Positions 675 through 35,544 of a stretch of DNA of 64,000 nt are shown here, in pieces. This DNA comes from a virus (taxonomy: Duplodnaviria; Heunggongvirae; Uroviricota; Caudoviricetes). Each line of letters begins with the position of its first letter. Position 1 is the stretch's first letter. The DNA is taken from positions 64,001-128,000 of the IMG/VR virus record IMGVR_UViG_3300031867_000007; one strand, 5' to 3'. Below the pieces are notes generated by a model. The model saw only the letters and a program-made list of their open reading frames with translations. It was not told the origin of the DNA and searched no databases. The position numbers and the translations under genes are program-made.

Positions 675-849
675 TTTTCAACACACCTCTCTACTTTTTA
701 TCCATGGTGGTTAATTTACATAATAATTTGACAACTATTGTAACACAATTGTAATAATTTTGTAATGAAAATGTAATAAAAAACTATTGACAAACTTTTT
801 CTTTGGGTGTATAATGTATTTAATAAATAAAGAAAAGGAGTTGATTTTT

Positions 850-1134
850 ATGATATTAAAAGTTGAGGAGAAAAAAATTGATTTAGGAGTTGGACTAATT
901 GAAGGAGAGCACACAGTAAGAGAAAAAGCAGAATGGGTTAATATAGTAGATAGTTGCTTGGAGAGAGTAATAACTGAAATACCAGCAACTTGGATATGCG
1001 AAAAAAATGACACTACACAAGAAATAGAGTTCCACACGATATTGCATTTTGAAAATAACATTGATATTGAGTTTGTACCATTTGGCAACACCGCAGACAA
1101 TGACAAGCTAATTGATTATCTACTTACTTTATAA
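850..1134 (+). CDS. hypothetical protein
   Basis: TTGACA-N17-TATAAT promoter and AAGGAG RBS before ATG 850. Confidence 0.7.
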   Translation: MILKVEEKKIDLGVGLIEGEHTVREKAEWVNIVDSCLERVITEIPATWICEKNDTTQEIEFHTILHFENNIDIEFVPFGNTADNDKLIDYLLTL

Positions 1135-11814: not shown

Positions 11815-11849
11815 TTTATACCCTCCCTACTTATAATAATTTGATGCAT

Positions 11850-12403
11850 ATTAGCCATCCTTCTGAATGTTTCCCGGCGGCAACCACGTGGAGGTTTGCA
11901 TCATATACTACCGCCATTTGAAGTTGTTTGAGGAGTCATTTCTAAAACCTCACTCAGTCTTCTCCTGAGTTGATAGTCCGATAACGCAGATACTATTTAC
12001 CACGATACTTATACTACTCTAAGCATGGAGCTCTGGTCTACCTTTCCAGAAAGGGAAACTACTCTTTTATTAATCGCTCAAGTTCTCCCATTGCGATAGA
12101 AATTTTTCCCGCGGGTTTGCTAGGTTTTATGTTTTTGTCCTAGCTATAACGAGTTTATGTACACTCCCCGTCAGTTTTTTGATTGAGTTCTTTTATATCC
12201 TGTCGTTCAATCAACCAACAGCGAAGGTTTATCATTGTTCTTAGTACAAACACTAGCCTACAAAAGCTTAAACTAATCCCTATTCAGCCTTGTTTTGGGA
12301 CAAGGTCGAAATCAGTTTTTGAAGCCTTAACCCTTGCGGTGGTTACAAGCGTTGCCGCAATCGCCGCCATCTTATATTTAACGACCTAGATGAATCAGTC
12401 AAG
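11850..12403 (-). ncRNA. large structured ncRNA candidate (ROOL/GOLLD class possible)
   Basis: About 550 nt, GC-elevated, no credible ORF, own TTGATT/TATAAT promoter. Confidence 0.5.
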
Positions 12404-24202: not shown

Positions 24203-24288
24203 TGGTGGGTAATTAAGGACTCGAACCTCCTAATTTTATGATAGCAAATTTATAGTCTGCCGCGACTCACCACCTTCGCCGATTACCC
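24203..24288 (-). tRNA. tRNA-Tyr, anticodon ATA
   Basis: Cloverleaf with long variable arm; GCAGA CT ATA AA TTTGC; CCA end. Confidence 0.8.
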
Positions 24289-24454: not shown

Positions 24455-25172
24455 TGGAGTCGATACTGAGAATTGAACTCAGAACTCTATGCTTAGACAT
24501 TTTTTCACTCTTCTTCGGTATACTGTTTAATATCTTTTTTCTTACTTGGTAGATTATAACTAATACACCATTTTCTTATAGCACTATCTGAGACTCCAAA
24601 TTTTTTACCAAGAGCTACAAAACTTTCTTGCCTTATCATCTCTTTAAGTTCTTCTCTAATAGGTCTTTCACATCTTTGCTGTAATTTATGAGCACATTTT
24701 ACACAATATGTAGAATGTTTATCTTTTAATATAGTACCGCACATCTTACATAGTTTTGGAAAACTACGTTTTTTCTGTCCTCCTACCATAATATTATAAC
24801 CATTTGGAGTAATACAATTATATCTTTGAATGTATTCTTGTTCTAATTGATCGATTTCTTCAACACTACACTCTTGTAATACTTCTCAAGTAAAATGCTC
24901 CTTACCATATTTTCTAATCGCTTGATGTAAAATAGAATTAAAAGTCCCGCTCTTTTCAGAAAAAGATTTTCAAAAATGTTCTTTTACTCTTTTTTCAATA
25001 TCAATAGATTGTCCAATATAAACTTTGTTATTTATATCATTTTTAATTATATAAATCCCAATCATTATTTTATCCTCCTTATAATATATAAAAAGTAAAA
25101 TAAAATAATTTCAAACTCTTACCACATCTATTTACTTTTTTGCACAGAATTTTACCATTAAACTATACCGAC
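24455..25172 (-). tRNA. split tRNA (anticodon unresolved) interrupted by a GIY-YIG ORF
   Basis: 5' half 25142-25172 and 3' half 24455-24492 pair in acceptor and anticodon stems; U73, CCA. Confidence 0.75.
24493..25065 (-). CDS. GIY-YIG homing endonuclease (TGA=Trp)
   Basis: MIGIYII..VYIGQS..KYG; CxxC pair and C-terminal HTH. Confidence 0.85.
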
Positions 25173-25291: not shown

Positions 25292-25424
25292 TTATTAATA
25301 TTTGAAGGTGGGACGGCGTACCCCACATCTCATTATAGAACTAGGTCTTATAAGCTTTGTTTCAATATTACACTCTGCCTAGCCGCGTTAGCTGCCTTTC
25401 TAACCTCTTCAAATAATTATATTT

Positions 25425-26595: not shown

Positions 26596-27558
26596 TTAAT
26601 CTTTATAAAGTGGATATTTTTTACAAATTTCTTGTACCTGTAATACTAATTCATTTTTTATTAAATTAAATTCTTCATCATTGACCTTAATACATTTACA
26701 TATTAAATATGCTATTTTACGCATATCTTCAATAACCAATCCTCTTGATGTAACTGCAGCGGCACCTAGTCTTAAACCAGATGTTACCATTTTACTTTCA
26801 GTATCAAAAGGAATTGCATTTTTATTAGAAATAATACCTATTTCTTCTAATCTTGACTCTAATTTTTGTCCATTTATTTCAGTTTTTCTTAAATCTAATA
26901 ATAGTAAATGATTATCAGTTCCTTTAGTTAAGATATCACAGCCTAAATGAATTAATTCCGCAGATAATGTTTTTGTATTTTCTACTACTCTTTTCATATA
27001 TTCTTTAAATTCTGGTTTTAAGGCTTCTCCAAAACATACTGCTTTTGCGGCAATAATGTTTTCTAGCGGACCTCCTTGAGTTCCTGGAAAGACAGCGCTA
27101 TTAATTTTTTTAGCTATTTCCACACTATTAGTTAAAATTATTCCTCCTCTAGGTCCTCTTAGTGTTTTATGTGTAGTAGATGTAATAACATCAGCGTAAG
27201 GTACAGGAGATTGATGCAATCCAGCTGCTACCAATCCAGCTATATGAGCCATATCAACCATAAAATAAATATGATTTTTTTCTATATATTCCGGAATATC
27301 GCTATCTAATAAATAATAGTCATTATAAATTGCAGAATCAATTCTTTTTTGGGCTTTATCAATTATCTCTCTTAGTTTTTTAAAGTCAATTTCTCTTGAA
27401 TATGCACTTGCTCCTGCAATAAAAATTTTTGGTTTATTTTCTACAATAAAATCTTCAAGAGCATCATAATCTATTTCATATGTTTCTGAATTAACTTCAT
27501 ATTGAATTGATTTAAAATATTTTCCACTAAAAGTTGGTTTTGCTCCATGTGTTAAATG
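26596..27558 (-). CDS. glyA: serine hydroxymethyltransferase, exon 2
   Basis: [29 protein letters not shown]. Confidence 0.95.
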
Positions 27559-28441
27559 CATTTGTTAATCTTGTGATTTCGCACAAGTTCGGACTATACC
27601 TTCTACTTAAATTGAAATCTTTTCATAATTTCATCTCTGACATATTTATTCAAAGGATACTCTAATTCTGGATTATAAGCAGTAATTCCAATATTTATAT
27701 TAGAAATTGAATTTTTTGCAACTCCATATTCTCTTGCTAATTCTCTTATTGGAACTCCACTCATAATTGCATCTTGAATTTCTTCATAATAACCATATAA
27801 TTTACCTTTTCTATTAGAACCACCATGCTCTTGAATAATTTTAGATAATAAGCTATCACTAATATTAAAATATTCTATTATTTCTTGTCTTGGTAAATTA
27901 GTATTATTATATAAATCCCAAACTTCTTCTCTATATTCAAATTTTTCATCTATATTATTTATTGGATTATAATTTTTTGTTAATTGTTCATTATAAATAA
28001 TATAATCTAAATCTTCATATTTTTTGATAATTTTTTGTTCATAATAATCAATTTGAGATTTCAAACACTCTACTTCAATATTAACTTCTATATTATCAAA
28101 TCCTATTTTATTTATCCAATTATAGATAGGTCTATCTATTTTCTTTTTAACATAACTTTTATGTGCGTACATTCTTTGCTTAATATTTGAAGTTTTTCCA
28201 ATATAAATTTCCTTTAAATTATTTTTATTTTTAAGCGAGTAAATATACATATTTCCTCTCCTTTCTAAAATTTAAGTAGCCCCTTGGTAGTCTCTGAGGG
28301 CACGCCATTACGCTTATCCCTGCTGATTGTCCAATCTTTAATATTTTTACACTTTGGTAATTAAAGCTCTAAGGAGTTTCCAGCATATTCAGGGTTTTTC
28401 TTTTATTGTATCACTACAATAGGGAAGCCAGATTAACACAA
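27559..28441 (-). mobile_element. group I intron in glyA
   Basis: Exon ends in U, intron ends in G; P/Q/R/S-like ATGCTGGAAA, AATCAGCAG, TCAGAGACTAC, AAGGTATAGTCC; splicing restores SGG|HLTHG. Confidence 0.9.
27603..28250 (-). CDS. intron-encoded GIY-YIG endonuclease
   Basis: MYIY..IYIGKT..R..H; HTH repeats. Confidence 0.85.
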   Translation of the reverse strand: MYIYSLKNKNNLKEIYIGKTSNIKQRMYAHKSYVKKKIDRPIYNWINKIGFDNIEVNIEVECLKSQIDYYEQKIIKKYEDLDYIIYNEQLTKNYNPINNIDEKFEYREEVWDLYNNTNLPRQEIIEYFNISDSLLSKIIQEHGGSNRKGKLYGYYEEIQDAIMSGVPIRELAREYGVAKNSISNINIGITAYNPELEYPLNKYVRDEIMKRFQFK

Positions 28442-28813
28442 ACCTCCCGAATTTAAAGACATTCCCATTATTGTATCTCCTGGTTTAGCAAGAGCAAATT
28501 GAACAGCAGTATTCGCAGATGCTCCTGAATGAGGTTGTACATTTGCATATTTACAATCAAATAATCTACAAGCTCTATCAATAGCAAGTTGTTCTGTTTT
28601 ATCTATTATGCGGCAGCCTCCATAATATCTTTTACCTGGATACCCTTCACTATATTTTAAAGTATGATACGATGCCTGTGCTTCTAATACTGATTCACTT
28701 GGTTCATTTTCACTTGCGATTAGCTCAAGACAATTATTTTGTCTATTATATTCTTCCATTATTAAATTATAAACTTCTTGGTCTGTTTCTTTAAGATGTT
28801 TGAATTCTATCAT
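28442..28813 (-). CDS. glyA: serine hydroxymethyltransferase, exon 1
   Basis: [30 protein letters not shown]. Confidence 0.95.
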
Positions 28814-32330: not shown

Positions 32331-32883
32331 TGGCGCCGTACACGCGATTCGAACACGCAAGCCCTTTCGAGCCAACTGCTTTGAAATATGTATTATAATG
32401 CTTTTATTACCTCCTCTATCAAATAATCCTTTGCCCAATGTACATCTTTAACAAATTTCGCATTTTTATTAGGATCTGCTATTCTTAATGTAAATTGAGC
32501 TCTTTCCTTTTCACAAGGAATTAAATAAAATTTGTTATCTCATTCAGTCATATAAAAATCAATTTGATCTGGTGTATATTTCATTGTTTTATTTCCATTT
32601 GATACAGAATGAGTTGATTTACAATTAAAAACAATAGTTTCATTTTCAACATTCCATCTTGATGTTTTTATTTGAATACGATATATTTTATTATTATAAT
32701 CTAGAATTAAATCATATCTTGCATTGTCTAAAACAGGTTTAGATATAATAAAATCATTTTCAATTAAAAACATTTGACATTTTAATTCGGTAATCGCACC
32801 TTTTTTTAAATTTTCATTCATAATATATTTTAGCATTACATATCTTATTTCAAGGCAGCTCCCTCACCACCCGGACATACGGC
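32331..32883 (-). tRNA. tRNA-Ser(TGA) split by an insert of about 468 nt near position 37/38
   Basis: 5' half ends GCTGC CT TGA A; 3' half A GCAGT, long variable arm, G73 CCA. Confidence 0.8.
32393..32836 (-). CDS. PD-(D/E)XK endonuclease (group I intron-associated type; 1 in-frame TGA)
   Basis: KG..TE..P..DN.RYDLI..RIQIKT..Y...IDF. Confidence 0.85.
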
Positions 32884-32891
32884 ATATTATA

Positions 32892-33197
32892 TTAAAATTC
32901 GATATCTTCAATATATTTATCAAGTAATCTTATAAAATCTCTACAAAAAGAATAAAAAATATCTTCATTACATTTTAGTTCTATATAACAATTTTTAAAG
33001 CTATTATTTCTAAAACAAGTTTTCGACAAAGTTGATAAAGGTAATTGTTTCTCTTCTAAAAATTGATATATAATTTGATAAATTCCTGCATCTTCTATCA
33101 TAGAGTATGAATATCCTGATTCAAGCCAATTATTACCAGAATAATATTCTTTATTTAATTCAGTCTTTTTAAAATAAATTCTTCTTTTTCTCTTCAT
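32892..33197 (-). CDS. hypothetical protein
   Basis: ORF with RBS. Confidence 0.6.
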   Translation of the reverse strand: MKRKRRIYFKKTELNKEYYSGNNWLESGYSYSMIEDAGIYQIIYQFLEEKQLPLSTLSKTCFRNNSFKNCYIELKCNEDIFYSFCRDFIRLLDKYIEDIEF

Positions 33198-33390: not shown

Positions 33391-33448
33391 CCAAGTTTCT
33401 TAGTAAGAACACCCTTCGCCACGAGAAGGCGAACTTGGTTCGAAGGAC
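33391..33448 (-). ncRNA. HDV-like (theta) ribozyme in tRNA 3' trailer
   Basis: P1 GTCCTTC/GAAGGGT, P2 CCAAGTT/AACTTGG, P3 GCC/GGC, L3 TTCTCGT, J4/2 CTAA. Confidence 0.8.
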
Positions 33449-33508
33449 GCAGGGGCTGTAGGATTCGAACCCACACCCACGGTTTTGGAGACCGTTACCC
33501 TGGTTTTG

Positions 33509-34112
33509 CTTACCACTATAGTTTTCACTACCTACTGGACACTATAGTTTGTGGTCTGGAGTACATCTTCACCATATTATTTCTAACTTAGGTGTGCGAT
33601 TATCTACTCTCTACGGGCTAAAATATTATTTTATTCCCTCGGTATTGCCAGTCAAGGTTTCACCGATATCATCGCATCCACTCAAACTGTTTCCAATCTG
33701 AGGCTCCAATTGAGTAAAGTTATTTTTATAAGGTTCTAAAGCTTTTATTCCTATTGAACTACTATATTTCATAATAAAGTCTATTGGCACTATATATAAA
33801 TCTTCAGTCTCAATATCTGTTCCTATAAAATAATCTATTTCAGACTTATTATATAAATGAATTTTATATTGTCCTTGATTATGATTTATTTTTCGTACAG
33901 GAAGAACCTTCCTTCCACTATCCTTTTGAATAGTTTTAATTTGCATTTTTATTAAATAATTGTTTTTAATTGCAATACAATCTACTTTAGTATTTTCTAA
34001 TACAGGAATATATAATTCTCATTCCCTTTTTAGTAATTCCTTTTCTAGTAAATTATATCCTAATCTACCTTTAGTTATTGTGTCCACAACTTTACTCCTT
34101 TTTATTTAGCTT
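33509..34112 (-). mobile_element. group I intron in tRNA anticodon
   Basis: ATCGGTGAAA, AATACCGAG, CGTAGAGAGTAG, GAAGATGTACTCC core; terminal G; IGS TTGGAG (33704-33709) pairs across the junction. Confidence 0.85.
33626..34087 (-). CDS. intron-encoded PD-(D/E)XK endonuclease (1 in-frame TGA)
   Basis: AAGGAG RBS, GTG start; KG..KVDCI..MQIKT..Y...IDYF. Confidence 0.8.
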
Positions 34113-34213
34113 AAGACCAGTGTGCTACCATTACACTAAGCCCCTATATTAAAATTCTTTCTTTTTATATATACATTTTATTATATTTTTTTATAAAAAT
34201 CAATAAAAATTAT

Positions 34214-34288
34214 TGGCGACGTTAGGAAGTACTGATCCCCCGATCTCCGCAGTGATAGTGCGGAGATCTACCGCTGAACTATAACGCC
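34214..34288 (-). tRNA. tRNA-Asp-like, anticodon ATC, atypical T loop
   Basis: CCGCA CT ATC AC TGCGG; G73 CCA. Confidence 0.65.
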
Positions 34289-34563: not shown

Positions 34564-34648
34564 TGGAGCTGGAGGTGAGATTCGAACTCACGAAGAAAAA
34601 ATCGCCGCTTTACAAGAGCGGTCCCGTTAACCACTTGGGTACTCCAGC
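34564..34648 (-). tRNA. tRNA-Thr(TGT) with enlarged variable region
   Basis: CT TGT AA; 13-nt variable region. Confidence 0.8.
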
Positions 34649-35187: not shown

Positions 35188-35544
35188 TGGTGGAGATGAC
35201 GAAGACTCGAACTCCGTGTCCAAATTATATTCAAAAATAATATCTACAAGTTTAGTTTATTGTTTAATCTTTGATATATTTCTTACAACAAACAAAAATA
35301 TAATATATCGCACCTTTTTAAATCTTTGTAGGCGATACCAAGGTTACTTTTCAGCCACTACGCATCTACTTAATAACATTATTCTAAAAACAGTAGAATT
35401 TTTTAGATAATGTGTCTATTTTTAGGCAGCTACTAATTCTGTATTAGCGTTTATTTTATTTGCACCCATTTTTAAAGTTCCCATTGTGTCTCAACTACTT
35501 GCAACTATTTTATCTAATAAAATGTCGAAACCAAATACATCCCC
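35188..35544 (-). ncRNA. ssrA: tmRNA
   Basis: GGGGATGT..GGTTTCGAC 5' end; TTCGA..CATCTCCACCA 3' end; tag ORF ending ANTELVAA*. Confidence 0.92.

Follow-up and report, generated by a model that had tools for sequence, protein, structure and literature searches.

A phage tRNA-Trp gene split by a group I intron and bearing a second anticodon arm, the likely opal suppressor of a phage that reads UGA as tryptophan

Which tRNA reads UGA in a phage that uses this codon for tryptophan, and how is such a tRNA made from a gene that is interrupted in its anticodon? The window analysed here is a stretch of 64,000 nucleotides, part of the virus record IMGVR_UViG_3300031867_000007, which is linear, 143,829 bases long, 97% complete and 27.8% in G+C. 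Coding cover rose from 0.61 to 0.81 when TGA was opened, as against 0.66 with TAG opened; 69 of the 128 long frames contain TGA, and the codon totals for the genome are 196 TGA and 256 TGG. In an alignment with four related phages, the phage's own TGA codons faced W in 83, stop in 50, S in 2, and G and C in 1 each of 163 columns, and decoding of TGA as Gly or Ser was rejected on these counts. At the level of sequence, TGA is read as Trp in the genes for the terminase (4 codons), portal (2), tape measure (15) and endolysin (2). Two further approaches added little: on 10-kb flanks, recoded loci and controls could not be told apart by coding cover, and a flank homologue test of TGA reading had a sparse yield and was superseded by the aligned-codon comparison. 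No genes for TrpRS, an RF-1-family protein or a CCA-adding enzyme were found in the record by searches that detected controls in 14, 10 and 10 of 14 genomes, respectively, and the genome likewise yielded no plain tRNA-Trp(CCA). At the default threshold, a single UCA tRNA, the split tRNA-Trp described below, was detected in the 97%-complete genome; a relaxed intron run added one doubtful tca call of 800 nt (81763-82562).

The gene sits within a minus-strand cluster of 16 plain tRNAs plus a tmRNA and consists of two exons, numbered here, as are the features listed further on, by their position in the window:
34113-34145, minus strand: 5' exon of the tRNA-Trp, 33 nt, with the 5' strand of the acceptor, a 4-bp D stem, the anticodon stem and C32-U33-U34 (ARAGORN intron call c[33449,34145])
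33450-33508, minus strand: 3' exon, with C35-A36-A37-A38, the anticodon stem, a long variable region, the T arm, the 3' strand of the acceptor and G73, and no encoded CCA

The 5' exon ends in CTGGT-CT-T, the intron in G, and the 3' exon starts with CA-AA-ACCAG, as the initial annotation of this DNA had described. That annotation did not mention three further parts treated below, an endonuclease ORF, a second (CCA) anticodon arm and an HDV-like ribozyme. Among the five U/G registers that keep the stem, this is the sole one to give a 7-nt loop, CU-UCA-AA, and the guide UUGGAG (33709-33704, minus strand) pairs at 6/6 positions with the joined CUU|CAA, with the proposed U.G at the 5' splice site. 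The splice site is also fixed independently of this P1 argument, because the joined junction is present without the intron as DNA in 15 viral contigs, and the mature tRNA of the intron-bearing contig L001 is identical to that of the intronless L006. The tRNAs of L002 and L019 differ by one base. The Trp-like character claimed for the acceptor (AGGGGCU) and G73 was verified. The predicted spliced tRNA is 92 nt long to G73 and has a variable region of 25 nt. Compared with the tRNA-Trp identity elements given in the accessible part of PMC12135181, it has the G73, A1-U72, C35-A36 and 7/5 cloverleaf of bacterial-type tRNA-Trp; the canonical short variable loop and C34 are replaced by a second arm and U34. 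It should work like a tRNA-Trp and yet is non-canonical. The proposal of a UGA-decoding tRNA-Trp, with a UCA anticodon that in this genome would arise only after the predicted splicing, is supported.

Such a gene had been expected to be missed or miscalled by tRNA scanners, and both occur. It is absent from the output of default ARAGORN and of Rfam at the gathering threshold, whereas ARAGORN with the intron option and the bacterial code labels it 'SeC', and genes of relatives are called Thr, Leu, Cys or Ala. Default ARAGORN recovered the UCA tRNA at 0/20 intron-bearing and at 11/13 intronless loci. Relatives were also elusive to simple searches: a narrow sequence pattern found nothing, a looser one gave at least 120 loci within 11 of 64 parts and was set aside as too loose, and annotated phages returned 41 short matches only, mostly to plain tRNA-Trp.

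The sequence between the exons has the anatomy of a group I intron, with these parts:
33509-34112, minus strand: group I intron, 604 nt, IC3-like, inserted after U34, with omega-G at 33509
33704-33709, minus strand: internal guide UUGGAG, pairing with CUU in P1 (U.G at the splice site) and with CAA in P10
33512-33701, minus strand: ribozyme core, helices P2 to P9
33701-33682, minus strand: P2, with a GAAA loop
33676-33671/33600-33595, minus strand: P3, core helix
33666-33661/33644-33639, minus strand: P4, core helix
33638-33615, minus strand: P6, core helix
33611-33605/33563-33558, minus strand: P7, with a bulged A and the G-C binding pair
33594-33570, minus strand: P8, core helix
33555-33551/33516-33512, minus strand: P9.0, core helix
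33530-33519, minus strand: P9, with a GAAA loop

Several structural hallmarks of the group were found, namely U.G in P1 together with P10, a terminal omega-G, the P3-P7 pseudoknot and the P4-P6 domain. The P1 pairs C-G, U-A and U.G are retained in 11/11 of the guide rows listed, and P10 has 2-3 pairs. In the core alignment, 98% of cells are paired and 16 of 45 pairs are changed on both sides, a level reached by 0/500 shuffles, with the qualification that the 11 sequences form about two subfamilies, so that rows are not independent and the events are few. P3 and P7 are 100% paired, with double changes at 3/6 and 2/6 pairs, respectively. P4 was checked by motif since it was misaligned, and 6/6 pairs were found in both subfamilies; the introns of 341-360 nt did not fit the motif. 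The isolated core folds at z = -3.1. The IC3 subgroup has a compact core with GNRA loops in P2 and P9, an anatomy applied here by itself rather than through subgroup models, and the intron shows the compact core, both GNRA loops, a site in a tRNA anticodon loop and kinship with classical tRNA introns. From anatomy, covariation and the intronless alleles, we infer that it would undergo guanosine-dependent self-splicing at the junction given above.

Rfam RF00028 gave no direct match to this intron, nor to the ORF-less intron of L212; a match to RF00028 serves as a detector, not as the definition, of group I introns. When an intron model built from the family was run over five bacterial genomes, two matches were obtained, both to introns in tRNA anticodon loops. 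With RF00028 these two score 38 and 33 bits, below its cut-off, and Rfam scores them as group I. The same model also matches the tRNA-Leu(UAA) intron of the related phage L192 (7189-8029), and the present intron was probably retargeted from an intron of the tRNA-Leu(UAA) type. Introns at the classical tRNA-Leu(UAA) site were seen in the related phages L192 and L001 (3055-3920), and another group I intron-like core, scoring 38.9 bits with RF00028, lies outside the window (G000:C1:142660-142815, plus strand). In four RNA runs, kept as contigs, no junction-spanning spliced or cleaved RNA was seen. One 246-nt contig of an RNA library is identical to 33532-33777 and shows neither transcription nor splicing. 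An apparent joint 33494-34123 in X8 (short side of 25 letters, 85% likeness) was rejected, as it fits the one-arm tRNA-Trp of another organism.

Published parallels to the intron exist in bacteria. Introns of class Leu.3Ug (Williams, bioRxiv 10.1101/2020.01.27.920355) occupy the same loop position and have the same CUU 5' flank. The bacterial tRNA group I (IC3) introns more generally (Williams, same preprint; Azoarcus pre-tRNA-Ile, available passages of PMC13168695) share the U.G at the splice site, omega-G and a core of ~200 nt. They differ from the present case, in which the host is a phage opal-suppressor tRNA-Trp (CUU/a...g/CAAA), the endonuclease ORFs are swappable and RF00028 does not score the intron. 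No Trp class is named in the available text of Williams 2020, whose Table 1 covers 17 new classes. Among phages, Lak megaphages also have tRNA introns, which the accessible passages of Devoto et al. 2019 (PMC6784885) describe as enigmatic and assign to no class; the present intron differs from those as described there in having a complete group I core, an endonuclease and a suppressor tRNA as host. As of 2014, every known phage group I intron lay in a protein gene, according to the available part of Hausner et al. (PMC3984707).

The tRNA's 3' end must also be made, as CCA is encoded in all 16 other tRNAs and absent only from the split tRNA-Trp (17 tRNAs in all). A candidate for this step adjoins the 3' exon:
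33391-33448, minus strand: predicted theta-type (minimal HDV-like) ribozyme, G1 at 33448, from a weak Rfam HDV match, a descriptor scan and a copy in L005
33448-33442/33417-33411, minus strand: theta P1, 7 bp, with G1.U
33438-33432/33397-33391, minus strand: theta P2 helix

P3 is GCC/GGC (3 bp), L3 reads UUCUCGU, a C is present in J4/2 and there is no P4 stem. G1 (33448) lies within 5 nt of the tRNA 3' end (G73, 33450), and the Rfam HDV match, a weak one of 19.1 bits (E 0.71), starts two bases after G73. Our own theta descriptor found two sites in the genome, 33448 and the Rfam HDV hit at 11915, and none in 20 shuffles, to be read knowing that it was composed after the sequence had been viewed and that a stricter first version missed the site, with equal hits in shuffles. 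A copy in the L005 contig has compensatory changes in P1 (one of eight hits was real in that search of relatives, and another search gave 0). The ribozyme is present in 2 of the 41 two-arm 3' segments and absent from the other 39. We predict from this model that the 3' element is a theta-type ribozyme that cleaves itself. The site at 11842-11915 (minus strand) is a full HDV-like ribozyme above the Rfam cut-off and does not adjoin a tRNA.

The tRNA-linked theta ribozymes in the available passages of Kienbeck et al. 2024 (PMC10879173) likewise have a minimal HDV fold, G1 at most 2 nt from the discriminator and no encoded CCA, and a phage RNA ligase gene is present here as in those systems. The difference is one of codon and visibility: 99.7% of the linked suppressors there are amber and no code-4 genome with a suppressor-linked ribozyme is reported in those passages, whereas the tRNA here is opal and hidden by an intron. 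The present theta ribozyme was not found in the searchable supplements of that paper, the accessible text of which does not contain the word 'intron', and a tRNA so hidden would likely have been missed by its cross-reference.

A further departure from a canonical tRNA-Trp lies in the variable region:
33479-33495, minus strand: second anticodon arm, with a 5-bp stem and the loop CU-CCA-AA at 33490-33484

This region is a copy of the Trp anticodon arm. Because the two arms are nearly identical, the likeliest origin would be that the anticodon arm was duplicated in tandem and that C34 of the first copy then changed to U. The second-arm stem is 95% paired over 25 sequences, with double changes at 3/4 of the counted pairs. 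A scan over 59 of the 64 parts of IMG/VR gave two-arm genes at 47 of 119 loci, 29 with and 18 without an intron, by patterns that required the CCA loop, which makes its invariance there one of construction; nine intron records lack the flank for the 5' exon. A plain tRNA-Trp(CCA) as a separate gene is nearby at 11/33 loci, including 9/13 intronless ones, and none is near 18/20 intron-bearing loci. In bacterial genomes (12 of 64 parts), one two-arm tRNA and one tRNA-Sec-like gene were found among the 120 matches listed. The former, L265, has no intron and comes from a Phoenicibacter MAG, on a contig of 6.6 kb that may be a binned phage.

Data on such tRNAs have already been published. The spreadsheet of PMC12636597, as far as accessible, holds 31 phage UCA tRNAs assayed in E. 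coli extract without added synthetase and not chosen for the arm. Classed by eye, 13/31 are long-arm tRNAs, all with U-CCA in the loop; UCA-26 looks tRNA-Sec-like. UGA suppression of at least 20,000 RFU was reached by 13/13 two-arm tRNAs and by 2/18 others (Fisher 5e-7, rows being related; 6e-6 after dropping four rows that do not resemble tRNAs), a comparison in which shared ancestry and Trp-like acceptor stems act as confounders for activity and arm. The two-arm tRNAs gave 26,699-58,947 RFU (wild type, 69,124; no tRNA, 5,403), and the other 18 comprise two active ones, at 28,797 and 50,795 RFU, and 16 with no more than 11,695. These two single-arm UCA tRNAs suppress well, as does the M. alvus tRNA-Pyl(UCA) control (52,066 RFU), so that the arm is no strict requirement. 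The two single-arm tRNAs of Jade phages stay close to background and, according to the available text, need the TrpRS of their own phage; Jade phages combine a single-arm tRNA with their own TrpRS and RF1, neither gene of which was found here. Within the long arms, G32 is present in five loops and C37 in one, in contrast to decoding loops, and 8/8 tRNAs with C32 arms outscore 5/5 with G32 arms. Mass analysis in that study found Trp with 13/13 UCA tRNAs, which its accessible text leaves unnamed, and its statement that 9/31 exceed half of wild type compares with 11 by its own sheet. By eye, the present tRNA has the variable and T arms of UCA-5 and the acceptor and D arm of UCA-3 and UCA-6, and near-identical intronless two-arm tRNAs are active members of the screen. 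More broadly, the code-4 gut phage opal suppressors of Borges et al. and PMC12636597 are alike in UCA, in Trp identity and in TGA use in both structural and lysis genes; a second anticodon arm or a suppressor intron is not described in the available passages of either, and 'loop' and 'stem' do not occur in the main text of PMC12636597 as accessible, which does not mention a second arm.

Taken together, we consider it probable that this locus encodes the phage's opal-suppressor tRNA-Trp, matured by self-splicing of the intron and a 3' cut by the theta ribozyme and inserting Trp at UGA, with the CCA arm as its likely handle for TrpRS. The phage, which uses TGA for Trp and has no detected gene for TrpRS, an RF1-family protein or a CCA-adding enzyme, would transcribe a precursor from which guanosine-dependent group I splicing after U34 creates the UCA anticodon. 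A ribozyme cut between 33449 and 33448 would leave G73-C74 with a cyclic phosphate, and enzymes of the host or the phage would heal this end and extend it to CCA. The mature tRNA would then suppress UGA using host enzymes alone, as close two-arm homologues do in E. coli extract, an activity shown for them and not for this molecule. An arm at the variable position would have to reach the anticodon site of TrpRS, which counts against this step; whether the CCA arm is bound by the anticodon-binding domain of the host enzyme, and so acts as an identity handle, we put at about even chances. The intron would ride along as a homing passenger, its splicing required here but unselected as a switch. A promoter scan was at chance level (9 vs 5.9).

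It is quite possible, if on the less probable side, that tRNA and intron are real and the CCA arm is something other than a handle: a second conformer that decodes UGG, a ligand for a Trp T-box, a decoy for nucleases or a stabiliser in competition with RF2. Decoding anticodon loops disfavour G32 and C37, and the variants with these bases keep U-CCA although they make poor decoding loops, which speaks against this reading. A bifunctional tRNA would fit the lack of a plain tRNA-Trp(CCA), seen genome-wide here and near 18/20 intron-bearing loci; at 9/13 intronless loci, however, the separate tRNA is kept. Stability alone would not fix a CCA triplet. That some single-arm tRNAs are active also favours an arm without a role in charging, and so does the tolerance of TrpRS for U34, for E. 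coli TrpRS recognises C34 chiefly through its size and does not have to distinguish it from U34 (PMC12135181, accessible part).

The intron raises a question of its own, since it carries a long frame:
33626-34087, minus strand: PD-(D/E)XK endonuclease ORF, 153 aa, in the P1 loop, with a GTG start, AGGAG at 34099-34095 and an in-frame TGA at codon 23

The ORF matches Pfam PF11645 (E 2.7e-16) and PDB 2ost (E 1.7e-4) with the catalytic D...QxK aligned, and by motif and family profile it is a putative PD-(D/E)XK homing endonuclease. PDB 2ost, the database title of which is only 'Putative endonuclease', we take to be I-Ssp6803I of the cyanobacterial tRNA-fMet intron. The two proteins share the PF11645 match and a place as cargo of a tRNA intron; their similarity is remote, and the present frame differs in its in-frame TGA, its site in a phage tRNA-Trp and its putative status as a cleaving enzyme. 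A second PF11645 endonuclease frame lies at 32393-32923 (minus strand), 700 bases downstream of that of the intron.

The initial annotation had suggested that self-splicing controls the supply of the decoder for the recoded codon. As a purpose-built control, this is not supported: over 60 kb each, TGA/TGG is 89/57 in this phage and 106/73, 78/76 and 23/152 in intronless relatives, two of the three thus recoding about as heavily as this phage. The tRNAs that are identical with and without the intron and the swapping of endonuclease cargo oppose it further. In relatives, the cargo is a second PD-(D/E)XK type, a frame that reads as HNH-like, or no long frame at all; ORF-less introns of 210-360 nt exist among them, and the distribution of the intron across two-arm loci is patchy. 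The recoding in intronless relatives, the occurrence of one and the same tRNA with or without an intron, and the swappable cargo make the intron look like a homing passenger, one that also conceals the gene from scanners, with splicing needed here but not selected as a code switch.

A regulator of a subtler kind can be conceived, in which accumulation of spliced tRNA lets ribosomes read through TGA as far as the core, which slows splicing and results in negative feedback and an endonuclease made only late. The architecture invites this idea. Past the start of the guide the ORF continues for 81 nt, across P2-P5, and with code 11 its translation would end after 22 aa; in 10/13 distinct long introns TGA stops the frame within 22 codons, and 11/13 frames enter the core. 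All Trp codons in the 11 distinct full-length intron ORFs are TGA (11/11, at about four independent sites). The idea is nevertheless unlikely, as TGA is absent from 3/13 ORFs, one of them in a phage that recodes heavily (94 TGA/107 TGG), and ORF-less introns of 210-360 nt and recoding intronless relatives exist. Most other endonuclease ORFs of this genome are TGA-rich too (TGA/TGG 4/1, 6/2 and 2/3; one 0/2), and a preferentially recoded intron endonuclease is already present in the available text of Borges et al. (bioRxiv 10.1101/2021.08.26.457843). Doubtful for the same locus is the full combination of a two-anticodon tRNA that parts decoding (UCA) from identity (CCA), a maturation by two ribozymes, and UGA-gated feedback of the endonuclease frame on decoder supply, the feedback step being a long shot.

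It is very improbable that the intron is dead and the gene a relic, with UGA read by a near-cognate host tRNA or by the product of a gene lying in the 3% that the linear, 97%-complete record lacks. Such a relic would agree with the lack of an Rfam group I match and of a spliced read, but every core helix is intact and covarying, the ORF is intact, and 15 TGAs in the tape-measure gene demand efficient suppression.

A long variable arm with G73 is the signature of SerRS, and tRNA-Sec has an 8/5 acceptor-T fold and a long D stem. Still, a tRNA for selenocysteine, or a long-arm suppressor charged with serine, is scarcely credible here, for all that ARAGORN gives the label 'SeC' under the bacterial code and that a bacterial tRNA-Sec-like gene (L276) has a similar variable loop, as the tRNA has a 7/5 fold and a 4-bp D stem, unlike tRNA-Sec, the 163 TGA columns show W in 83, S in 2 and C in 1, and Trp was found by mass with 13/13 UCA tRNAs (PMC12636597, accessible part). 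The gene at L276 (~783-875, minus strand) is from Skermanella and its variable loop reads UCCAAAA, which may be chance or a hint on origin.

Read as the likely opal suppressor, the locus bears on how phages without a synthetase or release factor of their own switch the code in a host. Suppressor tRNAs of code-4 phages, group I introns of bacterial tRNAs, phage tRNA introns of no assigned class and theta ribozymes are known already; the present case would add phage suppressor tRNAs to the hosts of group I introns and opal recoding to the settings of theta ribozymes. According to the available text of Borges et al. (bioRxiv 10.1101/2021.08.26.457843), an opal suppressor was found in only 35% of code-4 phages. 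Part of this gap may consist of genes hidden by introns, because 29 of the 47 two-arm loci are split by an intron and default ARAGORN recovered 0/20. In design the second arm is compact, and two-arm tRNAs are already set apart from most one-arm tRNAs by published data; if the arm does carry synthetase identity, anticodon and identity would be separable in engineered suppressors. No description of a two-anticodon suppressor or of an intron-split phage suppressor was found in the open-access texts searched; subscription papers or tables may hold one.

Several neighbours of the gene are unusual as well. A second tRNA-like scaffold (24455-25172, minus strand) has a 7-bp acceptor, an encoded CCA and a 7-bp anticodon stem, with ~640 nt in its anticodon loop and a GIY-YIG frame with 4 TGAs; no ribozyme core was found in it by Rfam or by our intron model. 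An SHMT gene (26596-28813) is likewise split around a GIY-YIG frame. A skipping-rope RNA lies at 25300-25414 and the tmRNA at 35188-35544, and a Thr(UGU) anticodon is carried on a tRNA body with a long variable arm (34564-34648, minus strand). Finally, tRNAs with A34 in place of G34 occur as Tyr(AUA) (24203-24288, minus strand) and Asp(AUC) (34214-34288, minus strand), and as Asn(AUU) in relatives (L002, 1206-1276), possibly, by way of speculation, as an escape from nucleases aimed at GUN anticodons.
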